A stretch of 64,000 bases of DNA. Source: Candidatus Micrarchaeota archaeon (GTDB taxonomy: Archaea; Micrarchaeota; Micrarchaeia; Anstonellales; Bilamarchaeaceae). The DNA is taken from contig JBFMEZ010000025.1 of assembly GCA_040753215.1 (NCBI GenBank), positions 5,528 through 69,527 on the forward strand, read 5' to 3'. The translations under genes were made by a program, and so were the position numbers. Below the pieces are notes generated by a model. That model did not search any database, was not told the origin of the DNA, and was given only the letters and a program-made list of their open reading frames with translations. Below are positions 9,068-53,686 of this stretch, in pieces. Position 1 is the stretch's first letter. Every line of letters begins with the position of its first letter.

Positions 9068-9103
9068 TTACAAACCGAAAACTGGGAACCGGGGAACTGG
9101 TGT

Positions 9104-9751: not shown

Positions 9752-10063
9752 ATGTTTGAACTTCTGGGTTACGCCCTTCAGCTGGCCGGGGTTTTCCTTG
9801 CGTTCCTTGCGGCAGGGCTGGCGTTTATAATAGCGGACATGACAAAGGGCGGCGCAACGGCGCGCTCCACGAGGATGATTGCCTTCGGGCTTATGGTGCT
9901 TGCGCTGGGAATTTTCCTTACATATGCAGGGACCCTCACCGGAGCAATAGACCCGCTCAGCCCGACGCCCTGGTGGCCCCTCCTTGGGGCGGTTACTGCG
10001 CTGGGCTTCGCGCTTCTTCTCTCGGGCCTGTGGACCATGCTGAAGGCGCTGAGGGGTGCCTGA
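9752..10063 (+). CDS. small membrane protein (103 aa, 3 TM), hypothetical
   Basis: Immediately follows the previous gene (TGATG overlap) and is entirely hydrophobic. Confidence 0.45.
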   Translation: MFELLGYALQLAGVFLAFLAAGLAFIIADMTKGGATARSTRMIAFGLMVLALGIFLTYAGTLTGAIDPLSPTPWWPLLGAVTALGFALLLSGLWTMLKALRGA

Positions 10064-10890: not shown

Positions 10891-11724
10891 ATGGAAGCGC
10901 ACAAGGCTCTCGCGAAAGCCGGGATTGCCGTCCTTCTGCTCATCCCTCTCTGGCATATGCTTGTGGCTGAGGAATTGTACAAAACCGGGGAGGATTTCTA
11001 TTTCTATGCGGAGGGGTTCGGGGAAAGGGAATACCTCGCGCCCGGGGCGAATGAAACCAGGGAGATGCAGGTTATAACCATCATCACCAAGAGGATTGTG
11101 GAGAGCCGCGGGGACGAAGCCAGAATGGCTTTTGAAGTGGAAAGCAGGGAGCTGGCAACCGGGGCCCCCATATTTCACGCAAGCGAGGTGCTGGATTACA
11201 ACAGGCGCACATTTTCATTCACAAAGGACGGGAGCGCTTACAACTGGTTCCCGAGAAACGTGGAGAAGAGGGCGTATGAGGACGTCTACTACTCCTCCGC
11301 CCTGCCTGTGGCGGACTACGAATTCGAAGGGGTGGAAGAAGTGGAGGGGCTGGAGGCGTATGTGTTCGGGTTTGAGGGGAGGATGGATGCCTCGGGGAAA
11401 TACCCGGACTATCCCGATGCGCGCATAACCAGGGATATGGAGGGCAGGATATGGGTGGAGCCCAGAACGGGCAGTGTGGTGGACGTGGAAGTGGAATGGG
11501 TTGCGTATATGGATGCTGAAGGCGGCCCCGTGGTGATAGACAGGGGAGGCACAGGGTACTCGGATGACACGGCTGCCATGCTCGCGGAGGAGGCTTCGGG
11601 CAGGAAAAACCACATGCGGTTTGCGCTCATATGGATGCCGCTGCTTTTCGTGTTTGCCGCAATAGCGGCGTTTGCAGCATCCTGGCTTGCTAAACCAGGG
11701 AGGGAAGGATATGGAAGCAGGTAA
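10891..11724 (+). CDS. N- and C-terminally membrane-anchored protein, paralogue B
   Basis: Same architecture as 10063-10890 (N-terminal TM, EEL/YxxxE-rich domain, C-terminal TM), directly abutting it. Tandem paralogues. Confidence 0.55.
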   Translation: MEAHKALAKAGIAVLLLIPLWHMLVAEELYKTGEDFYFYAEGFGEREYLAPGANETREMQVITIITKRIVESRGDEARMAFEVESRELATGAPIFHASEVLDYNRRTFSFTKDGSAYNWFPRNVEKRAYEDVYYSSALPVADYEFEGVEEVEGLEAYVFGFEGRMDASGKYPDYPDARITRDMEGRIWVEPRTGSVVDVEVEWVAYMDAEGGPVVIDRGGTGYSDDTAAMLAEEASGRKNHMRFALIWMPLLFVFAAIAAFAASWLAKPGREGYGSR

Positions 11725-37200: not shown

Positions 37201-40200
37201 CTGTGCCCAGGGGCAAGCTCCGCAAGAAGGCCCGCGGCTCCGCGCCTGACATTAACATCTTCGTTGTGAGCCAGCAGCTCCCCGAGGAGGGGCCCTGCAC
37301 GGCTGAAATCCATCGCAAGGAAGTACCTCCGGGTGTCCAGGCCTTTTCCGCCCAAAAGTATGAGCCGGCTGGCCGCACCCTCTGCGACCTGCTGGGAATC
37401 GTGGGTGAGCATCGGGGCGAGCACATCGCACGCCTCTTCGGTGCCCATCTGTCCCAGCACGGATATCGTTCTGAGGTTTTCCCCGTCCTCCCTGCCTGCG
37501 TATATGGACGGCAGGAGGCGGAGGCCGCCGGAGTGTATGCTTGAAACCGCGAGCTTCCTGACTTCGGCGTTCCCGCCGGCTGTTGCGGAACAGAGCACGG
37601 GGTAAACATCTTCAGGGTAGCGCACCGCGAATTCCGAGAGCAGGGTGGCGGCTGAGACGCCGGCTGCTTCGCTGAGCTCGCTGCCATCGCTGTCCAGCAC
37701 CGCTTCCTTCAGGAGGGCGAGCGAGCGGTTGAAATCCAGGTTCCTGAAATATTTGTGGGTGTCAGTGCCATCTGCTCCGTGCGCGGCGAGCAGCACACGG
37801 GCCGCCTCTGCGGAAACTGCGGGCTCCGTGTCGAGCAGCACGGGCGAGAGCGCGGCAAGCGCCTCCTGCGTCCCTATCTCCCTCAGGACCGAGACCGCGT
37901 TTAGCTTGCCCTCCCTTGTGCATGAGCCGAATTCCTCGGACACGGCCCGTATCACTGCGCCGTCCCCCCGGGATATGAGCATGGAGCATACGCCCATCGC
38001 GACATCCGGGTAGTCCAGGGCTCCGGCGAGGCCGTTGAGCGCCGCCGGGTCGTTTATGTCCGCCAGCCTCTGGAGGGCTGCGAGGCGGGCATCGGAGTCC
38101 TTCGCCCTGTGGAGCAACTTCACGAGCCTTGCTACCTCCCTGCCGGATTCCCTGGAAGATGCGACCAGCTCCGGAGCGGGAGGCGAGTAAACTGTAGGCC
38201 CCGCGTTTTCTGGCCCGGATTTTCCCACAAGCCCCTGCGGAGGCGGGTATAGGGATGTCGGCCTCGCTTCCAGAGGTATTCCATCTGCATGGGCCTCTGC
38301 TGTTTGCGGCACCGGAGCTGGCGGCTCTGGTTCGGCCGCAGGAACATGCGAGGTTGCGCCCGGCGTTTCCGGAGCCGGCTGGCCTTCAGCGGCAGGTGCA
38401 GCAGGTTCCTCGCCCAAAACATCCTCTTCCCTCACCGGAGCAGGCGGCTGGGACGGGGTTTCTGGCAAACCAAACCCCCGCCCTCCCGGTCCCACTTCGG
38501 CTCTGGAGGTTTGGTTTGGTCTCCCGTTTCCTGTTTCCGGTTTCGCGTCCGCTGTTGGCTGCGGAGCGCCTGCTGCCTGCGCTTCTGCCTTTTCTCCTGC
38601 AAGCGCTGCGGCTATCTCTTCCGGTGTGGGGGCACGTCTCTGAAACGTCCTCCATTTATCCGGAGGCAGCAGTTTTCCATCGGGGCCGAGCAGCGCGGGG
38701 CCCACATCCGGCGCAGGTGCGGGGCCTTTCATTGTCGGGTGCGCGGAAGGAACATCAGCAACCGGCTGGGGAGTGGAAACTGTAGAGTGGGAACCGGGAA
38801 CCGGAAGCGGGGAACTGGTTGCTGGCTGCGCTGCGGGCATCCCTACTGCGGTCCCTCCCCTCGCAGCGTCTGCCATCTCTTGTGAACCTGAAACGGGCGG
38901 CTTTCCTGCCGTAAGGTCAATCACCCGCTGGAACTCGCCGCTTTCGGAAGCATCCGGCGCATGTGGCACAATTTCCAAGTGCAGCTTCTTTGCACCCGGT
39001 TTCCCGCTTTCTGTTTCGGAACTGGAAACCGGAGACAGGAAACCGGAAACTGCGCTGCCACCTGCGGGCGGGACTGCGTGACCGGCAACCGTTCTGCCTC
39101 TCAGCGCCTCTGCCATTGCGAGGCTCTCGGGGGCAGCGGAGGAAACCGGCCCGGAACCGGAAACTGGAAGCCGGGAACCGTGAACCGGCTCTGTTGGTGC
39201 AGCTGCGGTGGCGGCTCTTGGCGCTTCCGCTGGGGGAGTCGGCACTTCGGGAGTTTCCGGCAACCGGGAACCGGAAACTGGAAGCTGGGGTGCCGGGTAA
39301 GGAGGAGGAAGCGGCTTAAGGAGGCCTGAATCGCCTTCTGAGCCGGCTGCGATTGTGGCAGCGAGGCCTATGGGCGCGGCGATTTCGACCGCATGCACGC
39401 GCGGGCCGGAGCCGTTTGCAGGAGGGGCTGCTGGAACCGTGGGCCTTGCTTCACTCTCCTTTGCGGCCTCAAGCTCGCGCTCGACAACCTTAAGGAATTC
39501 CAGCACTGCCGGCCCGGAGGGAAGCCCTATCCTTTCGGAATTTATCTTGTCCAATGCCGCGTGCATCAGTTCCGGCGCAATGGAACCGTTGCCGCAGAGA
39601 AGGTAGATGTGGAGCTTTGCAGGGTAGGGGTGGCCCGCATCTATGCACAGCCCGGAGAAGAATGCCGTCTCCTCATCAATGCCGCTGAACTGCTTCCTCT
39701 CGGAAAGGAGGATTGCGAGTGCCTTCTTTCCCACATCCTCGGGAATGAAGCCCCTCTGCACCCTGTTGTCTATCTGCCTTTTCGTCCTTATTTCGGCCCT
39801 GCAGACCGTGAAGAGCTTGTCCGCCTCTTCGGGGGTTTTCACCGACGCCTCGCCTGCGCGAACACGCCTAAGGGCTTCCTCCGCGGCCATGGCAGCGTAG
39901 TTGTCGGCCGGCGGCTTCCATTCCTTTCCGACTGCGCGCATGAGTGCGGCGAGCCGCTCGGGCATCGCGAGAACTGCGTTCCAGCCCTCGAGTTCTGCCT
40001 CCTTTTCGGCAAGGGCTGCGGGAGCGGGTTCCTTCTTTCTCATGCCCCCAACAGACTTGCCGAGGGTTTCAACAAAACCTTCCGCGGTCCTGCGCAGCTT
40101 CTCGCCCTGGAAAATATTGAGCAGGCCGGAGCGGCCCACGCGCACTCCGCCCATGGTTCTCGGGCCTTCCGCGAGCATAGTATAAGCGTTATCTTCGGGC

Positions 40201-42500
40201 TCTGCGCCGAACGCTGCCTTCCACGCCTTCTGCAGGAGCTGGGCGAGCTCCGGGTCCGCCTGCTCTATTTCGAGGATGTGGAGCCTCCTGGCCGCCTCTC
40301 CCATTTTGATTACATAGGCAAGTGCAGCGGCCTTGACCAGGTCTTCGGCGGCCTTATCCGTTTCCGGTTTCCCGCTTCCAGTTTCCGGCAACGGAGAACC
40401 GGGAACTGGCAACTGCTGGGCGCCTTCTGCCGCCTCTTCCGTGCTGCCTGAATCGTACCATCCGAGATATCTCTCGTCCGCAACGAGCCGCCGCACCTGC
40501 TCCTCCCTCGGCAATCTGAGGAGTTCCGGCGGGACTATTGCGCCTGCCTTCTGCCTTATTGCCTGCTCCAGCCCGGCCGCAAGCGAATCCATGGAATCGT
40601 TCAGCCCTCCAACGGCATCCGGCCCCAGGATTTCGGCGTTTGCAAGGAAAACCCTGCAGGAATCCCTCACAAATGAGCGCACATCAGACTGGAATTCCTT
40701 TTCTTCCTTAAGGGAGGCGAGGACCTGCGGGCGGGTGAGCAGGATGCCTGAAGCGAGGTATCTCCTCTCTGCCTCAAATGCAACGGAATAGGAATAGCCG
40801 CCCTCTTCTGCAATCATCCATATGTATTCGCCGCTGCTGCCCTGCAGCTTAAAGCGTGCCTGGAGAAGAATGTCGCCGGCGGAATCCAGGTCGGACGGGA
40901 TGACGAAATGGGTCCCGGAGAGCCGGATTGCGGCATCGGCTTCCTCATCCGTATAGCCGGAACCCTCTGCGGCCTTACTTATCAGCTTTGCGGCATCCTC
41001 TTCTTTCAGGAGATACTCCTTTGCCGCTGCCAGGTATCCTGAGGCCGCTTCCTCATCCTGGAGAATAGTGCCCTTTGCCTCTGCAGCATTCTGGGCCGCT
41101 ATCCAGGCTTTCATCGGGAATCCGCCTTTATCACCGGCTTTTCCTACAAGGACATGGTTCTGGATTTTCTGCTCTTCGGTGAGGACTGGCGGCCTGGGCA
41201 TCACGGTTGTGGATTCGGATTCGTGGATGAGCATCTGCCTTGTTTCCTCAAGGACATGGCGGGAATATTCATCGGGATGCATGCTGGGGAGCTTTACCGG
41301 GACCGCGTCGCCTGAGCCGATGTCCGCCTTTCCTGAAAGGCGCTCGGCTGCGCGCATGTAAACCCTCCTCGGGAATCCGCCGGATTTCCCGGAACCGTAT
41401 ACGTAGGATGATGGGTTGCTGAGGAAGGAGTGCTCTGCCCTCATCTCTGCAAGCACCTCTTCGGAGACTATTCTCTTTCCTGAAGAGGAGTGCCTTCCGG
41501 CTACTGTGGTGATGACCGGGGTGCGGAGCGGGCCGGCGGGAACTCCCCTCCCGCCGAGCATCCTCACATATTCGTATCCGTGCCTCGCCTGCATTAGGAG
41601 GTCGAGCGCTTCGGATTCCAGCGCCTCGCGCCTTTCCTTGCGGCCGTGCGTGACGTGCATCCCGAGGGCCTTTGCAGGCGGCTTCGGGAACCAGTTGTAT
41701 TTTGCGCAGAGGGCGAGGGCTGAGGCGGCTTCCCTTGCGGTGAAGCCGTTCTTTTTCGCGAGCCTGCGGATGAATCTTTCAGTTGCATTCGGGATTCCGG
41801 CTTCCGGTGAAACAACCACTTTGGGGGGAGCGGGCTGCGGCGCGGGCGGCTGGGGCGGAATGGCAGGGGCAGTAACCGGCCGGGTTGCCATGGACGATAC
41901 AGAAGCTGGAGATGCGGACGAGACTGGGGTGGAAGCAGGAACTGGCAGCCGGGAACTGGAAACTGGAGACCGCGGGGCTGCCATGCCTTTTGGATGCGGC
42001 TGCGCTGCTTTGCTTAGGAGGCCGAGGGCTCCAGCCTCATCCGCCGGAATGCTGCCGGAGCAGAAGGAGATGCCCCTTGCCCTTAGGATGTCATCTTCCG
42101 TGAAACGGGTGTCCCTGCCGGCTGCCTTCCTGAGGAGGCGCATGAGCTTTTTTTCGGAGCCCGCCCATTCCTCTGCGCGCACGAGCAGGTCGCGGGCGCT
42201 GTTTCCTGTGAGCCTTGTGCCGGGCGGAAGGTCGAGGCACAGGTCCTTTGCAAGCCCGATTACGGCTGCTGTGCAAGGGTACCCTTTATTGCCTGTGTAT
42301 TCCACCACGTACCAGTTTGTGGCGATGTCGAGCAGGTTGCGCGCAGAGGATGCATCAAATGCCGAGCCTTCTGGCAGGCGCTTTACTAAGCCCTTGGCTG
42401 CCGCAAGCGCATCGTTGGTATATCCATCGTACTCTGCGACATTTTCAAGCAATGCAAGGTTCCTTTCGGTTCCAGCTGGGAGTGCAGTAGTGTCTCTCAT
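34224..42500 (-). CDS. giant protein (2758 aa): N-terminal globular regions, ~450-aa Pro/Ala-rich low-complexity linker, ~1500-aa array of PBS-lyase/HEAT-like repeats
   Basis: 8.3-kb open frame in 60% GC DNA, which cannot be chance. The C-terminal half is repeated helical units (e.g. DSDARLAALQRLADINDPAALNGLAGALDYPD, NEDVNVRRGAAGLLAELAPGH). The linker contains in-frame GGAAACC-family repeats giving PVSGS and PETGN peptides. Confidence 0.7.
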   Translation of the reverse strand: MRDTTALPAGTERNLALLENVAEYDGYTNDALAAAKGLVKRLPEGSAFDASSARNLLDIATNWYVVEYTGNKGYPCTAAVIGLAKDLCLDLPPGTRLTGNSARDLLVRAEEWAGSEKKLMRLLRKAAGRDTRFTEDDILRARGISFCSGSIPADEAGALGLLSKAAQPHPKGMAAPRSPVSSSRLPVPASTPVSSASPASVSSMATRPVTAPAIPPQPPAPQPAPPKVVVSPEAGIPNATERFIRRLAKKNGFTAREAASALALCAKYNWFPKPPAKALGMHVTHGRKERREALESEALDLLMQARHGYEYVRMLGGRGVPAGPLRTPVITTVAGRHSSSGKRIVSEEVLAEMRAEHSFLSNPSSYVYGSGKSGGFPRRVYMRAAERLSGKADIGSGDAVPVKLPSMHPDEYSRHVLEETRQMLIHESESTTVMPRPPVLTEEQKIQNHVLVGKAGDKGGFPMKAWIAAQNAAEAKGTILQDEEAASGYLAAAKEYLLKEEDAAKLISKAAEGSGYTDEEADAAIRLSGTHFVIPSDLDSAGDILLQARFKLQGSSGEYIWMIAEEGGYSYSVAFEAERRYLASGILLTRPQVLASLKEEKEFQSDVRSFVRDSCRVFLANAEILGPDAVGGLNDSMDSLAAGLEQAIRQKAGAIVPPELLRLPREEQVRRLVADERYLGWYDSGSTEEAAEGAQQLPVPGSPLPETGSGKPETDKAAEDLVKAAALAYVIKMGEAARRLHILEIEQADPELAQLLQKAWKAAFGAEPEDNAYTMLAEGPRTMGGVRVGRSGLLNIFQGEKLRRTAEGFVETLGKSVGGMRKKEPAPAALAEKEAELEGWNAVLAMPERLAALMRAVGKEWKPPADNYAAMAAEEALRRVRAGEASVKTPEEADKLFTVCRAEIRTKRQIDNRVQRGFIPEDVGKKALAILLSERKQFSGIDEETAFFSGLCIDAGHPYPAKLHIYLLCGNGSIAPELMHAALDKINSERIGLPSGPAVLEFLKVVERELEAAKESEARPTVPAAPPANGSGPRVHAVEIAAPIGLAATIAAGSEGDSGLLKPLPPPYPAPQLPVSGSRLPETPEVPTPPAEAPRAATAAAPTEPVHGSRLPVSGSGPVSSAAPESLAMAEALRGRTVAGHAVPPAGGSAVSGFLSPVSSSETESGKPGAKKLHLEIVPHAPDASESGEFQRVIDLTAGKPPVSGSQEMADAARGGTAVGMPAAQPATSSPLPVPGSHSTVSTPQPVADVPSAHPTMKGPAPAPDVGPALLGPDGKLLPPDKWRTFQRRAPTPEEIAAALAGEKAEAQAAGAPQPTADAKPETGNGRPNQTSRAEVGPGGRGFGLPETPSQPPAPVREEDVLGEEPAAPAAEGQPAPETPGATSHVPAAEPEPPAPVPQTAEAHADGIPLEARPTSLYPPPQGLVGKSGPENAGPTVYSPPAPELVASSRESGREVARLVKLLHRAKDSDARLAALQRLADINDPAALNGLAGALDYPDVAMGVCSMLISRGDGAVIRAVSEEFGSCTREGKLNAVSVLREIGTQEALAALSPVLLDTEPAVSAEAARVLLAAHGADGTDTHKYFRNLDFNRSLALLKEAVLDSDGSELSEAAGVSAATLLSEFAVRYPEDVYPVLCSATAGGNAEVRKLAVSSIHSGGLRLLPSIYAGREDGENLRTISVLGQMGTEEACDVLAPMLTHDSQQVAEGAASRLILLGGKGLDTRRYFLAMDFSRAGPLLGELLAHNEDVNVRRGAAGLLAELAPGHRDAYPLLASAIAEGDTEASHTIMQALHEGSFDALRHLEDTLLDPGSPEVAVERAAELFLSAKGDDADVHYAYSRLLEAASGNSRAMEIMEAEADFGRVCAVLGDYNAPFAARKSAAALVGGQAAGTSVPLLLNAYQQQPELRESVASLLAAMEPAGMLAVALSESRTLGRVHDPLISQLVMEMAEKGSNPVAHLASYAEAESSKGTLTAEECRFMISLAMEAGFADDDANRILASSLPVLKGMDDEQLVAAARFARKIGKGAVPVILRYAEAAAEGLGADGAHLLSIVVEDIGAKEGVEFLKHALPEAVRMNPAQLEKLQDLAIKLDAAHGEAILLEYAERKSREGALTPKEALALSGLASAFGGLLESGRCAALAGHMLPLIKDMDAADVAAMQDFASLPVFAEGATKHAGRFLADREKEGIAPKEAAAIAVLLARINSDASYRLLSGLVSGKSLGDEAVRTGRRVEEALSAAYGKGEVRPCLMRAAFDRGELSDLGLVAFKIFREQKDCGADLIKACVKAHLFGDVEAADNADRLREARTILVRNGDLAVGQLSDIVLSVDFSRYPPEYRRNALVTIGELAGYARKKKGHRQSEATEKKARECLLNAIGMKELSEGVVAMVLSEMRNINLLDSVAAVLSTEGGEKLAARVYNVLRLMGRGAQEQIGAMLRSGDENKAVQAAELFTRVLQSGRETPKELSVLPEFRENTRLLAGLLRHRNGMVSTCAEDALKAAGPYVPLDELERMVRLRVHPQDLLPLDLEIASRKTAAQLMAAAGGPAAEHFAAIIGDSRMLPEVISEVLGVAAGSPAIGEKLLEPMALRGGQGDLEEKYEALNFAAELDSPFSALLCAVQCGKDVGVPMSAAFSGSPPAEWQKLLLKWAAVKAVVYRGEASAASQLIASGMFTAAEIGELMRDAVDKRLADERMMARDRRELPAYYAGYFGPELRGRIAASMNAPRPAPSPGLPLPKRFRGLVQGPPPVPRGARKLHH

Positions 42501-42521
42501 AACATATATTTGTCGCTGAAA

Positions 42522-42534
42522 ATGTTTTTAAAGG
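42522..42534 (-). promoter_or_regulatory. TATA box (CTTTAAAAAC) 23-33 nt upstream of the giant-gene ATG; leaderless transcript likely
   Basis: A/T-rich box in otherwise GC-rich DNA at the canonical archaeal distance from the start codon. Confidence 0.5.
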
Positions 42535-44292: not shown

Positions 44293-45609
44293 TTACTTCC
44301 TGCTTTTCGCAACCACAAGCAGAAAAGTTGAGACGAGCACCGCGGCGACGGGGCAGGCCGCGGAGCCCGGGGAACCTGAAACCGGGGGCTGGGAACGGGA
44401 GACCGTTATGCTGTCGCTTATCTCGGTGCCCTGGGTGCTTACGAGGTACGGGACGGAGTAGGTGCCGCTGCCCAGCGAATCAAGGTTGAGCGCGTATGAA
44501 AGGGCCTTCCTGCCGCCGGGGGGAAGGAAAAGGATTCCGGACTCCTCGCCGTGCACGTAGGGCGGGAACGTGATTATGTAGGTGGGCGTGAGGTAATTCG
44601 CGCCCGGGTTGCTTATCACAACGCTGAATTCTGTGCCGTCAAAAGCGGCATACGCGGAGGAAACGGGCGGGAAGGGCCCGCTCTGGAGTATACGTATCCT
44701 GGCGACCGTATCGAAAGAGAAGGGGCCTCCCCTCGCAGTGAGCCGGTCGGCAGCGCCGGACTGGTCCAGGGAATAGGTGCCCGCGATGCGGCGCGCATCC
44801 AGGTTCCCCAGCTCCCGGAATGTGGGGTCCGAGGGCACCCACTGGCCGCCCATATCCAGCTCGGCCCATGCGTGCTCCTGCCAGCCGTCGCCGCTGAAGA
44901 CGTAGCCTGAAACGTAGCGCGTGCCGATGCCGAGAGAGCGGGCAAGCGAGATGAGGAGGTGCGTGTAGCCCACGCAAACGGCGCGTCGGCCGGCATATAC
45001 CTCCTCTGCCGGGGCGTCGTCCCCCCAGAAATCCTCATCGTATTCCACGTTCCTGTGCACCCAGTCGGTGAGGACCGCCGCGGCCTCCAGCTGGCCGCTG
45101 CTCTCGGCAGTATGGGAGCGGGCGAAGGCGGCCATTGCTGTGGTGTATGTTGTGAGCGTCGTGCCCGGGATGGAAGCGTTGGGGAGGGGCGGGTTGGAGG
45201 AGAGGTCCGGCATATAGCGCGTCTCAACGACCGCAACGGCAGTTATCTTTTTGGGGGTGGAGAGGTTGGCGGAGCGGTAGATTATCCTTATCTCGTCGCC
45301 GTGGCGGACCGCCTCGCCGTCGCTCAGGTTTATCTGGATTATCCTCTGGAACGGTGATTCGACAAGGAAGGTCGCATTCAGGACCGCGTCGCGGAGGGTG
45401 CCGTTTGAGACTATGTTCCATTCCTTTTCGAACTCGGCTGCCATGTAGCCGGTGTATGTGGAAAAGGAGATTGGGAGGAGAAGGAGGAAAATGAGAGCCG
45501 GAAACCGTGGGCTCAAACCGTGAAGCCAGGGACGGACGGGGGGACGGGAGGGCGGCTTCACGTCTTGACGGGAAACAGGGAACTGGAGGCTGGCTGGCAC
45601 GGGTTTCAT
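44293..45609 (-). CDS. secreted/anchored transglutaminase-like (cysteine-protease-fold) protein
   Basis: RRAVCVGYTHLL (catalytic Cys), WQEHAWAELD (His) and SDPT (Asp) form the transglutaminase-like core. N-terminal signal/TM (ALIFLLLLPISF) and C-terminal TM (VAAVLVSTFLLVVA). The leader region is encoded by heptamer repeats. The start ATG overlaps the purD stop (ATGA). Confidence 0.6.
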   Translation of the reverse strand: MKPVPASLQFPVSRQDVKPPSRPPVRPWLHGLSPRFPALIFLLLLPISFSTYTGYMAAEFEKEWNIVSNGTLRDAVLNATFLVESPFQRIIQINLSDGEAVRHGDEIRIIYRSANLSTPKKITAVAVVETRYMPDLSSNPPLPNASIPGTTLTTYTTAMAAFARSHTAESSGQLEAAAVLTDWVHRNVEYDEDFWGDDAPAEEVYAGRRAVCVGYTHLLISLARSLGIGTRYVSGYVFSGDGWQEHAWAELDMGGQWVPSDPTFRELGNLDARRIAGTYSLDQSGAADRLTARGGPFSFDTVARIRILQSGPFPPVSSAYAAFDGTEFSVVISNPGANYLTPTYIITFPPYVHGEESGILFLPPGGRKALSYALNLDSLGSGTYSVPYLVSTQGTEISDSITVSRSQPPVSGSPGSAACPVAAVLVSTFLLVVAKSRK

Positions 45610-46901
45610 CTCTTCAGCCTGCGCATGTGCTCCACCCTCTTCCTCACGAGCAGCTGGGTGCCTATGTCGGGCCTGTGCCACAGCGGGCCGTGCACCGCGC
45701 GCGTGCAGCATTCCGCCTTCTCCTCGGCGCGCTCCAGCAGCGGGTCCTGCGCGGCGACCGCCACCGCGCGGGAGGAGGTTGTGAGTATCCTGCCATCCTT
45801 CTCATAAACCGAGCCGAGGTATGCCTTGCCGCCGCAGTCCCACACCGCCCTGTTGTCAACCTCCACGGCAGCATCCTTCTTCCCGTTCTCTGGATAGCCC
45901 TCCGGGACCAGGTATTTCACGACGGTGCAATTGGGCAGGAAGGAAGCGCCGGTGAGGCTGCCCTCCACTATGGACTGGAGCACGTCCGCGAGCTGCGTGC
46001 GCAGCACGAGCAGGGCGTTCAGCGCCTCGGGGTCGCCGAAGCGCGCGTTGTATTCTATCAGCTTCACGCCGCTGCCGGTTATCATGAAGCCGCCGTAGAG
46101 GACGCCGCGGAAGGTGTTCCCCTCTGCGCGCATCGCGTCTATGGTCTGCTGCATTATGGATTTCGCCTCCTCCAGGTCCCTGAGCTCCATGAAAGGGAGA
46201 AGGCGGCCGGTGGAGTAGGAGCCCATCCCGCCTGTGTTGGGGCCCATGTCGTTGGTGAACGCGCGCTTGTGGTCCTGGACCGGCGGCATCACGGAAAGGC
46301 GCTCGCCGTCGGAGAATGCCTGGAGGCTGAACTCCTCGCCGTCCAGCTTCTGCTCAAGCAGCGCCTGCTTGTCCTTCCGGAGGAGCTCCCTCACGTAGTC
46401 CAGGGCTTCCTCCGCAGAATTGAGGTGCTCGCCCATAACGCGCACGCCCTTGCCGCCGGTGAGGCCCACGGGCTTGACCACCACGTCGCCGAATTCGGAA
46501 ATGAAGGAGGATGCGTCCGATTCGCTCTTTGCTATGCGGAAGGCCGGGAGGCCCGGGATGCCGTGCTTCTGGAGCAGGGTGCGGGCGTATCCCTTGTCCC
46601 ATTCTATGCGCGCGGCCTCCTTCAGCGGCGAGGCGACCTTGAGGCCCGCGCCTGCGAGGATGTCCGTCACGCCCTTGGCCAGGAGAGCGTCGGGGCTTAC
46701 GAAGCCGAGTTCTATCCCCTTCTCTATGCACCATGCGCCGACGGTCTCCCTGTCCGCCGGGTCGCAGACGAGGACCTCGCCGGCGAGCCTGGCGATTCCG
46801 GGGTGCTTCTTCTCCATTATCGCGTAGAGCGACGAGCTCCGGGAGAGCTGCTCGGCGATTGCGTGCTCGCGCGCGCCGGAGCCTACGAGGACCACCTTCA
46901 T
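45606..46901 (-). CDS. purD: phosphoribosylamine-glycine ligase
   Basis: MKVVLVGSGAREHAIA N-domain and an ATP-grasp central domain. 431 aa. Confidence 0.9.
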   Translation of the reverse strand: MKVVLVGSGAREHAIAEQLSRSSSLYAIMEKKHPGIARLAGEVLVCDPADRETVGAWCIEKGIELGFVSPDALLAKGVTDILAGAGLKVASPLKEAARIEWDKGYARTLLQKHGIPGLPAFRIAKSESDASSFISEFGDVVVKPVGLTGGKGVRVMGEHLNSAEEALDYVRELLRKDKQALLEQKLDGEEFSLQAFSDGERLSVMPPVQDHKRAFTNDMGPNTGGMGSYSTGRLLPFMELRDLEEAKSIMQQTIDAMRAEGNTFRGVLYGGFMITGSGVKLIEYNARFGDPEALNALLVLRTQLADVLQSIVEGSLTGASFLPNCTVVKYLVPEGYPENGKKDAAVEVDNRAVWDCGGKAYLGSVYEKDGRILTTSSRAVAVAAQDPLLERAEEKAECCTRAVHGPLWHRPDIGTQLLVRKRVEHMRRLKR

Positions 46902-47193: not shown

Positions 47194-47889
47194 TCACCTC
47201 TTCCTTATGAAGCCGTTCTTGATGAGGGCATCGAGCCCCTCCTCCACCCTGCCGGCCGCGACGCTGTTCAGCTTGGAGAATTCCAGTACGTCTATCTCGC
47301 CGTCGTGGGTGCGTATCCACTCGAAAAGCTGCGCCTGCAGCTCCGTGTCGCCCATGCCCTCGAGGCGCTGCATCCGCTCCAGCAGGTCCTCGTTCTTTCG
47401 CTCGTATTCCACGAGGAGGCGCGCGTTCTGCGCGCTTGCCTGCACCAGGTCGTTGTATTTCTTCTCCAGGGAGGCGTGCTTCTGGCCGAGGTCCTTGAGC
47501 CGCGAGTACATCTCCATCTTTTCGCTGTCGGTGGCCTCGCCCATGGATTTCAGCAGGCTGAAATAGAATGTGTATACGGACTGGATCGGCACATCATAGT
47601 ATGCGGTGAGTATCTGGAACAGGTTCAGGAGCATGACCCCCATGTCAAGCGAGCGCGAGAGGCGGTGCTCAAGCACGGGGGTGGTGTATTTCAGTATTAT
47701 GGCGTTCTTGAGCAGCTCTATGCGGTAGTAGAGGTAGGGCTTCCCGTTCAGGTCCTCGGACTCGACCTTTTCTATGATGAGGGCGTCGTCGGAATAGTCC
47801 ATCCTGTTGAAGCCGAGCGAGCCGAGCGTCTGGAGGAGCGGCTTGAGCGGCCTCTTCCTCTTCGTGCTTATGCGTATTATCTCTTCCAT
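47194..47889 (-). CDS. coiled-coil protein with C-terminal winged-helix-like domain; last gene of the ATPase operon
   Basis: Heptad-rich central region (KHASLEKKYNDLVQASAQNARLLVEYERKNEDLLERMQRLEG) and a C-terminal LEFSKLNSVAAGRVEEGLDALIKNGFIRKR. Starts 2 nt after the ATPase stop. Confidence 0.5.
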   Translation of the reverse strand: MEEIIRISTKRKRPLKPLLQTLGSLGFNRMDYSDDALIIEKVESEDLNGKPYLYYRIELLKNAIILKYTTPVLEHRLSRSLDMGVMLLNLFQILTAYYDVPIQSVYTFYFSLLKSMGEATDSEKMEMYSRLKDLGQKHASLEKKYNDLVQASAQNARLLVEYERKNEDLLERMQRLEGMGDTELQAQLFEWIRTHDGEIDVLEFSKLNSVAAGRVEEGLDALIKNGFIRKR

Positions 47890-47891
47890 TT

Positions 47892-50800
47892 CTACTCCTC
47901 CCTCAAAGAAAGGTCAACCATGCCCTTGGAAGCCTTCCGCCTGCGGGCCAGGGAGAATATCTCCACTATGTCCTTCTCGCCCACCTCGAGCTGGCGGAGG
48001 AACCCCATTACGGAAGAGGGCGAGTAGCCGAACTTCTCAAGTATGGACACGAATTCCGTGGCGTCCATCACCCCGTCATTCCTCTCGAACTCGTTCTTCA
48101 CAAGCCCTATCTGCTCGTCGGTAAGGCCGAGCTCGTAGAGCATGTTGCAGAACTGCTCCCTTTCCTTTTCGACAGACATTCCATCAGCCTCCAGCGCATA
48201 CACGAACAGCGGCTCCTCCCCGTCTATCTTGTTAAGAAGGAAGGTGTGCGAGCCGCCTGCCCGCTTCGCGAATATCATGTTGAGGGCCGCGTCGCCCACG
48301 CCGAATTTGGAGATTTCGCCGTCTATGTAATCCGAGTAGTTCAGCGACTGCCGGACGTAGTCCTTGAACTCGCGCAGGACCAGCCGCAGTATGAACATCG
48401 TGCCGACGTTGCTCAGGATCGTCTTGTGCATGTCGGTAGGGTTCTGGGAGGCGACGATGAGGGCGAAGTTGTATTTCCTGCCCTCGCGCACTATCGTAAT
48501 CACGTCGCTGCGCTCGTCGGAGGCGATCTTCCACGCCTCGTCCACCACCACGAAGAGGCGGACGCCCTTCTCCTCCTTCATCTGCTCCCTGCGCATCCTC
48601 TCCTTGAGGAACTGGAGGATCGTGAGGCCCGCGAGGGAGCGCATCTCCTCGGTGGGGAGGGAATGGAGGTCTATGCACACCAGGCCCGAGTCCGTGAGCT
48701 TCTCCAGGGCCAGCGTGGAGGGCTTCGCGAAGAAGTCGCTGCCCTGAGTGGTGAAGCGCTTCAGCAGGCGCGCGGCGCCCCTCTTCTTTTTCTCCTCAAG
48801 CCTTTTCACGACGTCGGTGAGCGTGGGGTTCTTCGCACCGTCGTATGTTTCCTCGAGCGCCTCCTCTATGTCGTAGCGCTCGGAGGGGAAGTTGTGCAGG
48901 TCCAGCAGGATTTCGAGCGCGGACATTATCTGCTTCATCCGCTCGGATGGCGTGAGGCCAGCGAGGTCGAGGAGGTTGAGGTGCTCCTCGCCCAGGTGGA
49001 TGACCTTGCCGCCCGCCTGCTTCACCCACTTGTCGTACTCGCCGACCCAGTCCAGGATGAGCGCGTTGGAATTCCAGACGAGCGAGGCGCGGGTTAGGAA
49101 TGTTTTGGTTAAGTACGAGTTGTGGACAAACAACCCGCCAAAGCCGGCCATGAAAACCTCGCTGTCAACGGAAAGATCGTAAACGAACTCATCCCCAGAA
49201 GGCTCTTCCGCCTTTTCCACTATGGGGTCCCAGAAGAGGTCGGATTGTGCGAGCAGGTTGAGGAATTCCACTTCCTTGTCCCCGGTTGCCTGCACCGAAA
49301 CCTGCTCCAGAAGGCTTGCAAGATATTTTTTGGTTGGCCTCCTCAAGCCGGTTTGTATGGAGTAAGTCATCTGTGTGCGCGGGAGAGAATATTTCTTCAT
49401 CACGGAAGCAACGACGCCTTCTATGTTCGGAATCACATCAACGTTGCTGTGGCCCTTCCCGCATCTCTGGAGCAGCAGAACGAGGTTGTGGTTTTTCCTT
49501 TGAGTTACGAAGCCGATGTTTTCCGTGTATTTTCTGATGTTCTCCTTGCCGGATACCGTAACACGGTAGTATAACCCTCCCTTATGCTTAGAGTTGGTTG
49601 CCCTCTTCTTGCTTGGGTGGACTCTAGCGATTATGCCGAACCTCAGGAGCATGTAGCACAGCTGGCTGGCGAGCTCTTTTGACTTGGTGGTAGCGCTTAT
49701 GCACTTCTGCTCAACGCCGCCATCACCCTCAAAGTAACCCTTTAGGAATTCTGCGAGGTATTCCAGCTTGGAGGCCATAATGGGCGCGGGTATTTTCTTG
49801 CTGCCGGCATTGCCCTCAAGGCCGATTCTTTTTAGTAGCCGGACTACCGCGCTCGCTGAAGTGCGAAGCCCATGAGGTATTGGGAAGAACTGGAAGCCGA
49901 CAATCCCAAAGCAGCTTTTCATGTCGTCAAGAAGTTCCGGCTCGGTCGTGTGCACGTTTATGAAATGCTTTGCAATTGTGCCTTCTGAAACTATGTAGCC
50001 GCACAGCCTTGCGAGTGCCATCGCCTTTTCATTTTCTATCTTCGGGAGCAGAAGGGCGGAGCCGCTGGGCGACCTGAGTTTCAGTCCGGGAATAATGCGT
50101 GCGTCCAGACCGAGGAGTTCCATGATCTGGCTGAAATACGCGAGTGGGATTGCCCTTCCGGCTTTGTAGAAGCGGAGGTACTTGTCATATTTTTTGTTTA
50201 TCGGGAGCCACTTGTGCAACCTTTCGCAGTTGTCCGCGATAACTCCGGCTGCGCCTACCACATGGACATCGTCGTGTTTAAGCAGCCCAAGGGTGTCTAC
50301 GGCGAACTCTTCGCCTTCGAATGACAGCTCTCGCGGGGTGGGAATGTAATCACCCGTGCGCACCTCCGAGCCCTTGGCCACCGAGATACCGCCATCGCGC
50401 AGGACGAGGATGTTGTGGTCACCTGTCGTCCTTATCTCCCTGCCACTTGCGGTTTTGAATGAGTACAGTGTGCTCGGGGACTTTTTCCGCCCGGCGAAAT
50501 TAACGGGCACCCATTTCGCCTTTAGATTGCCATCAAATGAGTATATCTCGATGCCGGGGCTGCTGACGCCCTCCACATCGTCAATCGTTTCTGCAGAACC
50601 GGAATTTTGGATGAGCCCGTCTATAAGTTCTCCGATTTTTGCGATGCGGACCTTTCCGTTTTGCCTTATTATCACCGGCTCGTTTCTATCAATCGACTTT
50701 CCGCTCCCCGTGATGCCGACGATGGCGATGTGCGGGTTGATGAGCTTCTGGTAGTTCCAGAAGACCGGAACGTTCAGCCAGCGGGTTTTTCCCACATATA

Positions 50801-50906
50801 TCCCGTCTCCGGAGGATGAGATGAGGTATTCGGGCCTGGGCTCCGGCGGGTGCACCAGGAAAAGGCGCTCTGCAAGCTGCGGGGTGTAGATTTTCTGCAC
50901 TTTCAT
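47892..50906 (-). CDS. HerA/FtsK/VirB4-superfamily ATPase (DUF87-like) interrupted by a large intein
   Basis: Walker A AIVGITGSGK|S is interrupted after GK. Walker B is LFVVVDEAW and the sensor is ALIVASQNPTD. The inserted segment carries two LAGLIDADG motifs (LARLCGYIVSEGT, LKGYFEGDG) and ends ...GGLFVHN|S (intein blocks F and G with +1 Ser). Confidence 0.8.
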   Translation of the reverse strand: MKVQKIYTPQLAERLFLVHPPEPRPEYLISSSGDGIYVGKTRWLNVPVFWNYQKLINPHIAIVGITGSGKSIDRNEPVIIRQNGKVRIAKIGELIDGLIQNSGSAETIDDVEGVSSPGIEIYSFDGNLKAKWVPVNFAGRKKSPSTLYSFKTASGREIRTTGDHNILVLRDGGISVAKGSEVRTGDYIPTPRELSFEGEEFAVDTLGLLKHDDVHVVGAAGVIADNCERLHKWLPINKKYDKYLRFYKAGRAIPLAYFSQIMELLGLDARIIPGLKLRSPSGSALLLPKIENEKAMALARLCGYIVSEGTIAKHFINVHTTEPELLDDMKSCFGIVGFQFFPIPHGLRTSASAVVRLLKRIGLEGNAGSKKIPAPIMASKLEYLAEFLKGYFEGDGGVEQKCISATTKSKELASQLCYMLLRFGIIARVHPSKKRATNSKHKGGLYYRVTVSGKENIRKYTENIGFVTQRKNHNLVLLLQRCGKGHSNVDVIPNIEGVVASVMKKYSLPRTQMTYSIQTGLRRPTKKYLASLLEQVSVQATGDKEVEFLNLLAQSDLFWDPIVEKAEEPSGDEFVYDLSVDSEVFMAGFGGLFVHNSYLTKTFLTRASLVWNSNALILDWVGEYDKWVKQAGGKVIHLGEEHLNLLDLAGLTPSERMKQIMSALEILLDLHNFPSERYDIEEALEETYDGAKNPTLTDVVKRLEEKKKRGAARLLKRFTTQGSDFFAKPSTLALEKLTDSGLVCIDLHSLPTEEMRSLAGLTILQFLKERMRREQMKEEKGVRLFVVVDEAWKIASDERSDVITIVREGRKYNFALIVASQNPTDMHKTILSNVGTMFILRLVLREFKDYVRQSLNYSDYIDGEISKFGVGDAALNMIFAKRAGGSHTFLLNKIDGEEPLFVYALEADGMSVEKEREQFCNMLYELGLTDEQIGLVKNEFERNDGVMDATEFVSILEKFGYSPSSVMGFLRQLEVGEKDIVEIFSLARRRKASKGMVDLSLREE
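49119..50696 (-). mobile_element. intein with LAGLIDADG homing-endonuclease domain (about 526 aa) inside the ATPase P-loop
   Basis: Boundaries inferred from extein continuity: GITGSGK-[S71...N596]-SYLTKTF restores a Walker A plus helix. Terminal HN with +1 Ser. The first residue Ser is unusual but known. Confidence 0.7.
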
Positions 50907-51686
50907 CTAGAACACTTCGTCCCTTAGCTGTTCCGCCTCGGGCGGCAGGAAGTATTCCCACTCGAAGCACCTCACCATGTCCAGGTCGAACAGCTCGTTG
51001 ACGTCCGCGCCGAGCGTGGAGGAGATTATGGTCTTCACTTCCTTCGACTGCCTGCGGACCTTGGAAAGCGCCTCCTCGCGCGTGACGCCGTATGCGGTGG
51101 TGGAGACGAAGGACGTGATTTCGAGCGGGCGGTCTCCCCGGCTTATGCGCTCGAGCTGGCGGTTGTACATCGCGATCTCGCGGTCTAGGCGCACGAGCTC
51201 CTCGCTGTTCGGGGGGAGCTTGCGGCGCTTGCCCTCCGCCGCAGCGCGGCGCGTCTTTATGTCGTCTATCTCGCGCGTGAGGTCGACCTCGGAGACCAGG
51301 AGGGATATCTTCACCGCGTGCTTGAGGGATGCGAGCGCCTTCTCGAACGAGGAGAGCATGGACGCGCGGTCCTGCGAGTCCTTGTCCATCGTGCTCTCGT
51401 AGTACTTTATCTCCAGGAATTTGGTGGCGTAGAAGCCGTTGCCCGCCTTCTTCACGATGCAGTCGCGGGTGGAGGGTATCTCATAGCCGCCGCGGATCTC
51501 GACTATGTTGGTCGCGGAAGTGAAGTATGGTATCAGGAGGTAGCCGTACTTCCAGACGACCAGCGAGAGGACGAAGAAGAGGGCTGAGAGGGCGGCGAAT
51601 ATGGGGTTGCCCATAACCACCGCAATCACCAGGGCCGCAAGCCCGCCTCCGAGCGACATCAGCGTCATCATCCTGTTTTCTATCAT
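50907..51686 (-). CDS. membrane protein: 2 N-terminal TM helices plus a ~190-aa cytoplasmic domain (VirB3/TrbD- or CedA-like position in operon)
   Basis: Start MIENRMMTLMSLGGG; the ATG overlaps the upstream gene's stop (ATGA). The cytoplasmic domain has a coiled-coil segment. It abuts the ATPase start. Confidence 0.5.
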   Translation of the reverse strand: MIENRMMTLMSLGGGLAALVIAVVMGNPIFAALSALFFVLSLVVWKYGYLLIPYFTSATNIVEIRGGYEIPSTRDCIVKKAGNGFYATKFLEIKYYESTMDKDSQDRASMLSSFEKALASLKHAVKISLLVSEVDLTREIDDIKTRRAAAEGKRRKLPPNSEELVRLDREIAMYNRQLERISRGDRPLEITSFVSTTAYGVTREEALSKVRRQSKEVKTIISSTLGADVNELFDLDMVRCFEWEYFLPPEAEQLRDEVF

Positions 51687-52612
51687 AGGGAGCCCACCGC
51701 GAAGAAGAATTCCCCGCCGAATATTTCTGTTACCTCCTTTATGAATATTGCGGTTACGATGAGGGAGAAGAGGGGGGCGAGCAGCACGAAGAGCGAGAGC
51801 GACGAGATGGATTCGCTTATGCGCTGGGCGGCGAGCGTGAGGTCGCCTGTGAAGTCGCCGGTGGTCATGTTGTCGAGCTTCCCGGCGATTGCGTAATTGT
51901 CGTTTAGGTCGAGGATGGGCGTGGTCCTGTAGAGCGTGCTGTTGGTGACGTTGGTGAGGTTTGCTGTCGTCACGTTCAGCTCCGGGACCGGGAATATGAG
52001 GATGAACGCCGGGTAGAAGAGGTACACCCCTATGGAGAGGGCGATCAGGAACCCGCCGAGCCTGCGGGTGGAGAAGAAGGAGCGGAAGATGAGCCCGACC
52101 GGGAGGAAGAACGTGAGCAGCTGCGGGGCGAAGAAGCCGAGCACCTGGACCTGGAACTGGGAGACTGTGAGCAGCGCCTGCAGCGTGAGTATCTGCGACT
52201 GCAGGACGGACGCGATTGAGGAGAGGCCCGACATCGGCTGGATGGAGAACGTGGAGAATTCCAGGTTTATCGTCTGGTAGTACGAAACCATCTGGTGGAG
52301 GCTCACCGCCTGGGCGAGCAGCGCGAAGATCTCTGAGGAGAGGCTGGAGAATATGCACTGGAGGTTCTCTATCGCGTCTCCCGCGGTGCACGCGCCCTCA
52401 GTTATTATCCCGCGGCTTATTTCTGTGGCTGCGGCGACTATTGCGGTGTAGGCGCCGACCAGCGCCGCGTTTATCACGGACTGGATGAGCTCCTCCGTGC
52501 CGAAGTGCTCAAGCCGCTTCGAGTTCAGCGTCCTGCCGAGCCCCATCAGTATGCCTGAGAGGATTATGGAAAGGCTTACGACTATGCCGGCGAGGGTAAG
52601 GTCAGCTGCCAT
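51683..52612 (-). CDS. polytopic membrane protein (309 aa, at least 6 TM), candidate translocon/VirB6- or CedA-like component
   Basis: Hydrophobic throughout, with an extracytoplasmic loop carrying N-x-T sequons. Same operon. Confidence 0.5.
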   Translation of the reverse strand: MAADLTLAGIVVSLSIILSGILMGLGRTLNSKRLEHFGTEELIQSVINAALVGAYTAIVAAATEISRGIITEGACTAGDAIENLQCIFSSLSSEIFALLAQAVSLHQMVSYYQTINLEFSTFSIQPMSGLSSIASVLQSQILTLQALLTVSQFQVQVLGFFAPQLLTFFLPVGLIFRSFFSTRRLGGFLIALSIGVYLFYPAFILIFPVPELNVTTANLTNVTNSTLYRTTPILDLNDNYAIAGKLDNMTTGDFTGDLTLAAQRISESISSLSLFVLLAPLFSLIVTAIFIKEVTEIFGGEFFFAVGSL

Positions 52613-52629
52613 TTTTCACCTTCCCTGGG

Positions 52630-52875
52630 TCAGGTCAGGAGGTTCGACGCCACCGTCTGTATCAGCTCTGCGGCGCCTATTATCGCGGCGATAAGGACGC
52701 CGCCTATGAAAAGCCCTATCGCGGTGTTCTGCCACCTTCCCCTTGTCTCCCCGGGCTGGAGCTGTGCAAGCCCGTAGGCGACGCCCCCGACTATTATCAG
52801 GAGCAGCGAGAGGGTGACGCCGGCGGACTTCATGACTTCCAGCCAGCTCGAGAGGAGCGTCTCTATATACGCCAT
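52630..52875 (-). CDS. small two-TM membrane protein (81 aa), VirB2/TrbC-pilin- or CedA1-like
   Basis: Two hydrophobic helices separated by a short polar loop. First gene of the co-directional cluster. Confidence 0.45.
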   Translation of the reverse strand: MAYIETLLSSWLEVMKSAGVTLSLLLIIVGGVAYGLAQLQPGETRGRWQNTAIGLFIGGVLIAAIIGAAELIQTVASNLLT

Positions 52876-52936: not shown

Positions 52937-53686
52937 GTGAAAGTGGGCATTGGGCTTGGAAAGAGCATACATGAGAATGCAGCGCGCTACTACGAAGAGG
53001 CGAAGAGGGCGAGGGAGAAGGCGGAGGGCGTGCGGAAGGCCATGGAGCAGACGCGGAAGAGGATGAAAGAGGCGGCCGGGAGAAAGAAGGCGGCCGTGAA
53101 GGTCGCCCGGAGGAGGGAGTGGTTCGAGGAATTCCACTGGAGCTTCACGAATGAGGGAAAGCTTATTCTGGCGGGGAAGAATGCGCAGCAGAACGACAAA
53201 TTATTCGGGAAAATGGAGGAGGGGGACTTGTTTTTCCATGCGGACATACGCGGAGCCGCGGCGACTATTCTGAAGGGAGGGGTTGGCGCGGGCGGGGAAG
53301 AGAAGAAAACGGCCGCCACCATCGCCGCATCCTACTCGAAAGCGTGGGGAATGAGGATGGCGGCGGTTGATGTGTATGCGGTGAGGAGGGGGCAGCTTTC
53401 CAAGCATGTGAGCGGAGGGTTTGTTGGGGCTGGAGGGTTCGCGATTTCCGGGGAGAGGGAGTGGTTCGGGAATACAAAGCTGGTGCTCGCAGTCGGGGTG
53501 GAGGGGAACGGGCGGGTTTCGGCCGGGGCCGGGGATGCGGAGTGGATGAAGAAGAAAGTGCTCATTGTGCCGGGGAAGATGGAGAAGAAAGAGGCGGCGG
53601 GGAGGATTGGGGAATTGCTCGGGGTGCCGGGGAGCGAAGTGATGCCTGTCCTGCCTCCGGGCAGGATAAGTATTGCGCGGGGTTAG
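52937..53686 (+). CDS. NFACT-R (DUF814) domain protein, Rqc2/FbpA-family C-terminal-domain homologue
   Basis: WFEEFHWSFTNEGKLILAGKNAQQNDKLF...DLFFHADIRGAAATILK matches the DUF814/NFACT-R signature. Gly-rich C-terminal part. Confidence 0.55.
   Translation: MKVGIGLGKSIHENAARYYEEAKRAREKAEGVRKAMEQTRKRMKEAAGRKKAAVKVARRREWFEEFHWSFTNEGKLILAGKNAQQNDKLFGKMEEGDLFFHADIRGAAATILKGGVGAGGEEKKTAATIAASYSKAWGMRMAAVDVYAVRRGQLSKHVSGGFVGAGGFAISGEREWFGNTKLVLAVGVEGNGRVSAGAGDAEWMKKKVLIVPGKMEKKEAAGRIGELLGVPGSEVMPVLPPGRISIARG

Follow-up and report, generated by a model that had tools for sequence, protein, structure and literature searches.

Described P-loop inteins and the Micrarchaeota locus

The P-loop (Walker A motif) of ATPases is a textbook insertion site of inteins. 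The present analysis concerns a 64,000-nt stretch of DNA from Candidatus Micrarchaeota (contig JBFMEZ010000025.1), termed the window, in which a gene on the minus strand very probably encodes a VirB4/HerA-like ATPase interrupted at this motif by an intein with a LAGLIDADG homing endonuclease; all coordinates refer to the whole stretch. According to the survey by Novikova et al. 2016 (PMC4760082), P-loop insertions occur in DnaB, MCM, RFC and “many other ATPases”, and five bacterial VirB4 and 21 archaeal VirB11 inteins are counted there.

The best match to the window's intein by both sequence and fold is PI-PkoII, intein 2 of the Thermococcus kodakarensis DNA polymerase (2cw7), which is of similar size (537 versus 526 aa) and also alike in its C-terminal ...VYDLSV...GFG..HN. 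PI-PkoII and PI-PfuI (1dq3) share with the window's intein the architecture of a split Hint domain, an extra DNA-recognition region and a two-motif LAGLIDADG endonuclease. However, their hosts are a family B DNA polymerase or a ribonucleotide reductase instead of a VirB4-like P-loop protein, and the structural-alignment identity amounts to about 22%. In a sequence search against the PDB the best matches were PI-PkoII (8e-24) and the Methanocaldococcus TFIIB intein (5o9j; 9e-22), both covering the N- and C-terminal splicing regions. The N-terminal Hint half of the TFIIB mini-inteins (5o9j, 5o9i) is very similar to that of the window's intein, positions 2-121 of the latter (IDRNEPVIIRQNGKVRIAKIGELID...) being aligned with VDYNEPIIIKENGEIKVVKIGELID... 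of the solved chain. In contrast to the window's intein, the crystallised TFIIB forms are devoid of an endonuclease, and their host is a transcription factor and not an ATPase.

Inteins at the same point of a homologous ATPase are found in VirB4/TraC proteins of Patescibacteria (P0306/MBU2052314.1, P0161/MFV1917327.1 and P0169), where the junctions read xSGxGK/S ... HN/SYxVK (slashes mark the intein boundaries throughout). These inteins nearly always start with Ser1 and have both LAGLIDADG motifs like the window's. They differ in that their hosts are bacterial, full-length VirB4 proteins with a fused N-domain, encoded in type IV secretion system (T4SS) clusters with PrgI/TraC-like genes, and in that most of them contain an extra insert of about 100-150 aa which is absent from the window's intein. 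Other Micrarchaeota inteins (P0326/P0121 and P0158/P0310) agree with the window's in gene, codon position, Ser1 and HN/S, but they belong to separate lineages with extein identities of 71% and 46%, respectively, and those of the P0158 type are 147 aa longer.

A literature search combining intein with HerA, Micrarchaeota and DPANN retrieved neither a description of the window's intein or operon nor one of an intein in a DPANN VirB4/HerA-like ATPase, and no mention of the abundant VirB4 inteins of Patescibacteria; inteins are not mentioned in the 2025 survey of T4SS in Patescibacteria (PMC12102498). The JGI and NCBI pipelines already label these proteins as intein or homing endonuclease. The window's intein is an ordinary example of a well-known selfish element at the most typical kind of site and leaves the knowledge of inteins unchanged. 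It adds one more P-loop-targeting intein, and the range of the VirB4 P-loop intein allele, hitherto bacterial, now includes DPANN archaea.

The intein in the Walker A motif of the ATPase

We are highly confident that the insert represents a canonical class-1 intein with a LAGLIDADG homing endonuclease, located in frame in the Walker A motif of a Micrarchaeota ATPase of the VirB4/HerA superfamily. The precursor protein (Table 1) is identical to MEW5996806.1, an NCBI entry from a metagenome-assembled genome (MAG) of Candidatus Micrarchaeota. Its Walker A motif GITGSGK/S is broken between Lys70 and Ser by an in-frame insertion, IAIVGITGSGK preceding the first junction, SIDRNEPV...GFGGLFVHN forming the intein ends and SYLTKTF following the second junction. 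The precursor translation reads ...NPHIAIVGITGSGK/SIDRNEPVIIRQNGK......VYDLSVDSEVFMAGFGGLFVHN/SYLTKTFLTRASL..., the slashes enclosing the 526-aa intein. Ser597 doubles as +1 splicing nucleophile and as the Ser of the Walker A motif GKS. In the unspliced precursor the Pfam matches to DUF87 and FtsK end at residue 71.

An earlier inspection of the DNA without database searches, in the following referred to as the sequence-only reading, had proposed an intein of about 526 aa in the Walker A motif with Ser as first and as +1 residue and with two LAGLIDADG motifs. Its coordinates proved correct to the base when the translation of the open reading frame (ORF) was mapped, both serines are present and both motifs were located (Table 1).

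The isolated insert was recognised by the Pfam families Intein_splicing (56.7 bits, cut-off 35.8, E 3e-15) and LAGLIDADG_3 (84.3 bits, cut-off 22.5, E 7e-24; two stretches) as well as by the NCBIfam family TIGR01445 intein_Nterm (50.2 bits, cut-off 24.5). Matches of this strength are far from what chance would give. Intein_splicing matched as one split domain (aa 14-526), the pattern that a Hint domain with an inserted endonuclease should show. Strong NCBIfam matches below the thresholds were the intein-containing versions of RpoA'', RFC, DnaB, IF-2, Tes, PolII and V-ATPase A.

The alignment of blocks A, B, F and G, which the sequence-only reading had suggested as a check, revealed all four together with the LAGLIDADG blocks, and the key residues are invariant among the window's intein and eight relatives (alignment A1; Table 1). 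The LAGLIDADG helices end in YIVSE238G and YFEGD325G, both invariant in A1, and the block F/G region aligns with the C-termini of PI-PkoII and the Mja TFIIB intein. Judging from the protein sequence, class-1 splicing and LAGLIDADG catalysis have every residue they require.

The AlphaFold2 model of the intein, calculated from the nine-sequence alignment, has a mean predicted local distance difference test score (pLDDT) of 88.2 and a predicted template modelling score (pTM) of 0.89. According to a Foldseek search against the PDB the best hit for this model was PI-PkoII (E 1.5e-31, template modelling score 0.74), followed by the TliVMA intein (7qss) and PI-PfuI. The Hint part was matched by mini-inteins, and the endonuclease core by I-DmoI and I-Tsp061I.

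The intein presumably follows the established class-1 pathway, from which the proposed mechanism is derived. The 112.5-kDa precursor would be translated as one chain and would then fold. Ser1 would attack the carbonyl of Lys70 in an N-O acyl shift, presumably aided by Thr91 and His94 of block B, and the N-extein would be passed to Ser+1 by transesterification. The cyclisation of Asn526, assisted by His525, would free the intein, and an O-N shift would turn the ester into a normal peptide bond. The predicted products are the 54.4-kDa ATPase, its GITGSGKS P-loop being intact, and the basic endonuclease of 58.1 kDa (pI 9.0) in free form. The endonuclease may cut intein-less alleles around ...GGC AAA/AGT TAT..., and recombinational repair would copy the intein into them (homing). 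Since the Lys and the Ser of GKS lie 526 residues apart in the precursor, the unspliced form should not bind Mg-ATP normally, and the function of the ATPase would depend on splicing, as the sequence-only reading had soundly reasoned.

Removal of residues 71-596 in silico resulted in a 478-aa ATPase of 54.4 kDa with a continuous GITGSGKSYLTKTF. This spliced ATPase was searched against 5.8 billion proteins, which gave 1154 matches at E ≤ 1e-5, and the best 120 of them (cluster representatives) were inspected. All 120 lack the intein; nearly all are 463-532 aa long, and the named sources are mostly Candidatus Micrarchaeota, Micrarchaeia or Bilamarchaeaceae. The top orthologues (477-480 aa) share 87-90% identity with the spliced ATPase at 100% coverage. 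An unbroken GITG[SA]GKSY[LT]xK was found in 119 of the 120, and two intein-less orthologues match the spliced junction GITGSGKSYLTKTF exactly.

At the DNA level, the genomic context was read from four intein-less loci (L001-L004) and two intein-bearing loci (L005, L008). The extein of the window comprises 1437 nt, as do the intein-less genes of L001-L004 (1437 nt), with which it aligns ungapped at 81.8% identity. The empty site in the intein-less DNA reads ...GGCTCGGGCAAA/AGTTATTTGGTC..., and that of L001, GCGATAGTGGGCATAACCGGCTCGGGCAAA/AGTTATTTGGTCAAAACC, is a candidate target of the endonuclease. The comparison with intein-less homologues for gaps, likewise proposed by the sequence-only reading, therefore showed the 478-aa product to be co-linear with more than 100 such orthologues from Micrarchaeota. 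A long native insertion at this position, which that reading had named as evidence against an intein, does not occur in any of the 120 best orthologues, and the interpretation as an intein stands.

The NCBI product name for the whole protein, “LAGLIDADG family homing endonuclease”, might indicate that the insert is no intein but either a domain native to the ATPase of this lineage or a separate endonuclease gene that mis-assembly or mis-annotation has joined to the ATPase gene. However, the Hint blocks A, B, F and G lie on both sides of the endonuclease, the insertion is in frame and codon-exact relative to the empty alleles, a non-intein insertion at the site was found in none of the best 120 orthologues, and same-site inteins occur in independent assemblies. 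Taken together, this explanation has next to no probability, and a native insertion domain in particular was ruled out based on the full set of Hint blocks in the insert and the uninterrupted orthologues. The product name conceals a conserved VirB4/HerA-like ATPase, and the recognition of the intein restores the ATPase gene.

Judging from its protein sequence, the spliced ATPase falls into the HerA/VirB4 branch of the FtsK-HerA ATPases. Splicing in silico makes the Pfam matches to DUF87 (66.1 bits, cut-off 23.2) and AAA_10 (59.9 bits, cut-off 27.5) continuous across the junction and stronger, and the Walker A motif GITGSGKS as well as the Walker B motif VVVDEAW are present. Its sequence matches in the PDB are HerA proteins and the C-terminal domain of VirB4 (4ag5). 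The best NCBIfam matches were CedB (2e-31), the VirB4-like CD1110 family (4e-26) and CedD, in this order. Since the scores are far below the equivalog cut-offs (CedB, NF041017, 109 of 700 bits; VirB4_CagE, TIGR00929, 51.6 of 643; conju_CD1110, 91.6 of 325), the protein is to be described as VirB4/CedB-like and not as a member of these curated families.

Table 1. Features of the ATPase precursor, its intein and the surrounding gene cluster in window coordinates (A1, alignment of the window's intein with eight relatives)
Feature	Position	Strand	Remarks
Precursor gene, VirB4/HerA-like ATPase and intein	47892..50906	-	1004 aa, 112.5 kDa; single ORF, no internal stop
N-extein, aa 1-70	50697..50906	-	ends in first part of Walker A, GITGSGK (50697-50717)
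Intein, residues 71-596	49119..50696	-	526 aa, 58.1 kDa, pI 9.0; split Hint, extra DNA-recognition-type region, LAGLIDADG endonuclease
C-extein, aa 597-1004 and stop	47892..49118	-	first residue Ser597 at 49116-49118
Block A (SIDRNEPVIIRQN), Ser1 as first nucleophile (50694-50696)	50658..50696	-	S1, E6 invariant in A1; TIGR01445 match at intein aa 3-98
Block B (GREIRTTGDHNILV), TxxH = T91-G-D-H94	50403..50444	-	T91, D93, H94 invariant in A1
LAGLIDADG motif 1, block C (LARLCGYIVSEGTI), catalytic Glu238	49974..50015	-	E238, G239 invariant in A1
Conserved Lys300, slightly upstream of LAGLIDADG motif 2 in the protein	49779-49802	-	K300 invariant in A1
LAGLIDADG motif 2, block E (LAEFLKGYFEGDGGV), catalytic Asp325	49713..49757	-	G324, D325 invariant in A1
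Blocks F and G (EFVYDLSVDSEVFMAG FGGLFVHN): D507, penultimate His525, terminal Asn526	49119..49190	-	Y506, D507, H525, N526 invariant in A1
Walker B LFVVVDEAW (C-extein)	48531-48557	-	motif mapping
Whole cluster	47194-52875	-	81-aa, 309-aa and 259-aa proteins, ATPase (fourth gene), 231-aa protein
81-aa protein, two hydrophobic helices	52630..52875	-	weak match to Pfam PF18895 T4SS_pilin, E 0.0032, 18 bits, below cut-off 26.6
309-aa polytopic membrane protein, presumably in VirB6/CedA-like position	51683..52612	-	at least 5 hydrophobic helices; without family match
259-aa protein, N-terminal membrane helices and soluble domain	50907..51686	-	possible equivalent of VirB3 or the VirB4 N-domain (weak evidence)
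rqcH, flanking the cluster	52937-53686	+	
purD, flanking the cluster	45606-46901	-	

Distribution, composition and age of the intein

The intein is sporadically distributed. The 90%-identity cluster of the window's protein has 18 members, and among the 15 listed the window's protein is the only one of intein-containing length; the others lack the intein and comprise 478 aa (one of them is a 424-aa partial sequence). This clustering files the window's protein under an intein-less 478-aa representative and thereby renders the allele invisible at the cluster level. As the product name hides the ATPase and the 90% clusters hide the intein, surveys of DPANN gene content based on product names or 90% clusters mis-score the locus.

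In a second Micrarchaeota lineage (P0121; intact version P0326) the same codon is occupied by a 531-aa intein with 61% identity to the window's intein, and in a third one (P0158/P0310 cluster) by a same-site intein of 673 aa with 40% identity. In the P0158 cluster, which derives from Micrarchaeia, five of the 15 listed members are intein-plus (1193-1196 aa) and ten are intein-minus (523 aa). The C-extein of P0121 (L005, 4694-7225) is garbled beyond about residue 690 by a frameshift or an assembly error; P0326 is the intact 1011-aa version of this allele and is found on six other contigs.

Furthermore, a 228-kb Micrarchaeia contig (L008) harbours the 673-aa same-site ATPase intein and, about 4 kb away, a second LAGLIDADG intein in RadA, the positions concerned being 1585-4107 on the minus strand and 8001-11591 on the plus strand, so that at least some Micrarchaeia genomes hold several inteins. 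In the window, a tblastn search with the intein for further copies or free-standing LAGLIDADG genes matched only the intein itself, the next match having an E-value of 0.075.

When 1.84 billion cluster representatives were searched exhaustively with HMMER, 5063 relatives of the intein were detected at E ≤ 1e-3, 148 of them at E ≤ 1e-30. The top relatives are mostly located in VirB4/TraC-type ATPases, where they interrupt Walker A at the same point (xSGxGK/S...HN/SYxVKLExLRSL), and the named carriers among them are Patescibacteria, namely Parcubacteria, Uhrbacteria and Gottesmanbacteria. More distant relatives interrupt the P-loops of UvrB, VirB11/PilT-type ATPases and MCM. Walker-A inteins are frequent in the VirB4/TraC ATPases of the inspected T4SS clusters of Patescibacteria (P0156-P0169, P0306; L006, 10001-14281), in which T4SS_pilin and PrgI/TraC-like genes are neighbours.

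Two statements of the sequence-only reading have to be revised in view of this distribution. The Ser1 it had observed is indeed present, but it does not represent a departure from a usual Cys; a Ser at this place is the rule within the clade and occurs in 60 of the 75 relatives whose N-junction was mapped. An intein in a DNA-transfer ATPase had furthermore been considered uncommon; however, VirB4 inteins at this site exist in large numbers in Patescibacteria and more than once in Micrarchaeota, and VirB4 and VirB11 inteins have already been catalogued (PMC4760082).

In a neighbour-joining tree the inteins cluster by host family, those of Micrarchaeota falling within the VirB4-site group apart from the P-loop inteins of UvrB and VirB11/PilT; as the tree was calculated without support values and P0156 had been cut at a wrong N-boundary before column trimming, it serves as an indication only. 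Within Micrarchaeota the extein is better conserved than the intein (71% versus 61% for P0326/P0121, 46% versus 40% for P0158). Between the window and Patescibacteria, however, the inteins are 35-38% identical and the spliced hosts only 21-27%. That the inteins are more alike than their hosts suggests a horizontal movement between distant VirB4 homologues, although such a pattern is no proof of it, and may be taken as a hint of inter-domain intein traffic among ultra-small symbionts.

The less ordinary aspects of the locus are the possible sharing of a VirB4-site intein allele between Patescibacteria, which belong to the Candidate Phyla Radiation (CPR), and DPANN archaea, and the uncharacterised host operon. 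It is conceivable, but in our view unlikely, that the VirB4 Walker-A inteins form one allele family with a history of transfer between the two domains, its hosts being the chromosomal T4SS ATPase in Patescibacteria and the VirB4-like ATPase in Micrarchaeota, with the interrupted apparatus itself maybe being the route of DNA exchange, and with splicing perhaps also acting as a post-translational gate on an undescribed Ced/Ted-like DNA-uptake system near-universal in Micrarchaeota.

A related proposal would be that the intein now serves its host as a conditional switch, with splicing that responds to redox state, temperature, DNA, host contact or another cue and gates the T4SS/Ced-like apparatus post-translationally. 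Other P-loop inteins are reported to splice conditionally. The precursor would necessarily be inactive given its split catalytic P-loop, and the same site is filled in three Micrarchaeota lineages and in many VirB4 proteins of Patescibacteria. However, the distribution is sporadic, with none of the 120 best orthologue representatives carrying the intein, the sequence does not indicate a sensor, and the seemingly intact homing endonuclease and the foreign composition are more in keeping with a selfish element than with a domesticated regulator. A switch therefore seems very improbable, although it is compatible with the explanation as a selfish intein and not exclusive of it.

The composition of the intein is foreign and partly ameliorated. 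Its G+C content at third codon positions (GC3) is 0.64, compared with 0.86 in its own extein and 0.78-0.87 in five neighbouring genes; in L005 the corresponding values are 0.36 for the intein and 0.49 for the host gene. Both inteins are thus richer in A+T than their host genes, yet follow the overall composition of the host. The shift of the window's intein part-way towards the GC3 of its host suggests a long residence.

Since its GC3 lies between that of the low-GC relative in L005 and that of the host, this long residence might also be taken to indicate a decayed intein that is splicing-dead or endonuclease-dead, the ATPase being effectively a pseudogene or the intein being kept because its precise deletion is hard. 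The related allele P0121 with its frameshifted C-extein would point in the same direction. However, the frameshift is confined to one contig, as the intact P0326 demonstrates. In the window, the ORF is intact over 1004 codons, the catalytic residues for splicing and endonuclease activity are all conserved, and the extein is still 87-90% identical to functional-looking orthologues. We therefore consider decay highly unlikely.

Several points weigh against the interpretation as an active selfish intein. Protein splicing and endonuclease activity of the window's intein are predictions, and only one MAG contig has yielded this allele. The nearest intein-less alleles are about 82% identical in DNA and derive from other species, and an empty allele of the same population was not seen among the intein-less relatives found. 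The partial amelioration suggests a long residence, and the endonuclease domains of long-resident inteins often decay, although the catalytic residues are intact here. A “recent invasion” was weighed and is not claimed because the closest empty alleles share about 82% DNA identity and the GC3 is partly ameliorated.

The gene cluster around the ATPase

The host operon, a conserved relaxase-less T4SS/Ced-like gene cluster of Micrarchaeota, is probably of more interest than the intein itself. The ATPase gene is located in a cluster between rqcH and purD (Table 1), and its gene order is the same in L001-L004, the loci without intein, which also have purL and the gene encoding PCNA close by.

Weak matches and the gene order give the cluster the look of a minimal T4SS-like apparatus that is chromosomal and has no relaxase. 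It appears analogous to the Ced/Ted systems of Thermoproteota (PMC9905601) and to the T4SS that Patescibacteria encode on their chromosomes (PMC12102498). Similar to the CedA1/CedA pair (PMC9905601) the operon comprises a small protein with two transmembrane helices and a polytopic membrane protein. A weak T4SS_pilin match was also detected upstream of the ATPase orthologue in L008.

In contrast to CedB/TedB and VirB4 the window's ATPase has no N-domain fused to it; the separate 259-aa protein may take that role. The gene encoding this protein abuts the ATPase gene in L001-L004, and a 260-aa gene lies immediately upstream of it in L005. The 259-aa protein weakly matched the N-region of NF045975 VirB4_plasma (E 0.0036), and a BLASTP comparison with the N-terminus of Patescibacteria VirB4 revealed no similarity. 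A “split VirB4” is at most weakly suggested, by the NCBIfam match and the gene position.

The organism of the window belongs to DPANN and not to Thermoproteota, and a function like that of CedB/TedB is putative. The literature search found no link between CedB and DPANN, with work naming both DPANN and VirB4 being covered in part. As the T4SS-like assignment derives from weak matches and gene order, the designation of the protein as a candidate DNA-transfer ATPase, which is as yet unproven, seems reasonable.

Elsewhere in the window, a giant stop-free frame of 2767 codons extends over 34227-42527 on the minus strand, for which only a faint match to HEAT_2 was obtained. L001 (from 16564) and L002 likewise have a giant gene at one end, of 2784 and 2386 aa, respectively, each running into the end of the locus and truncated there.

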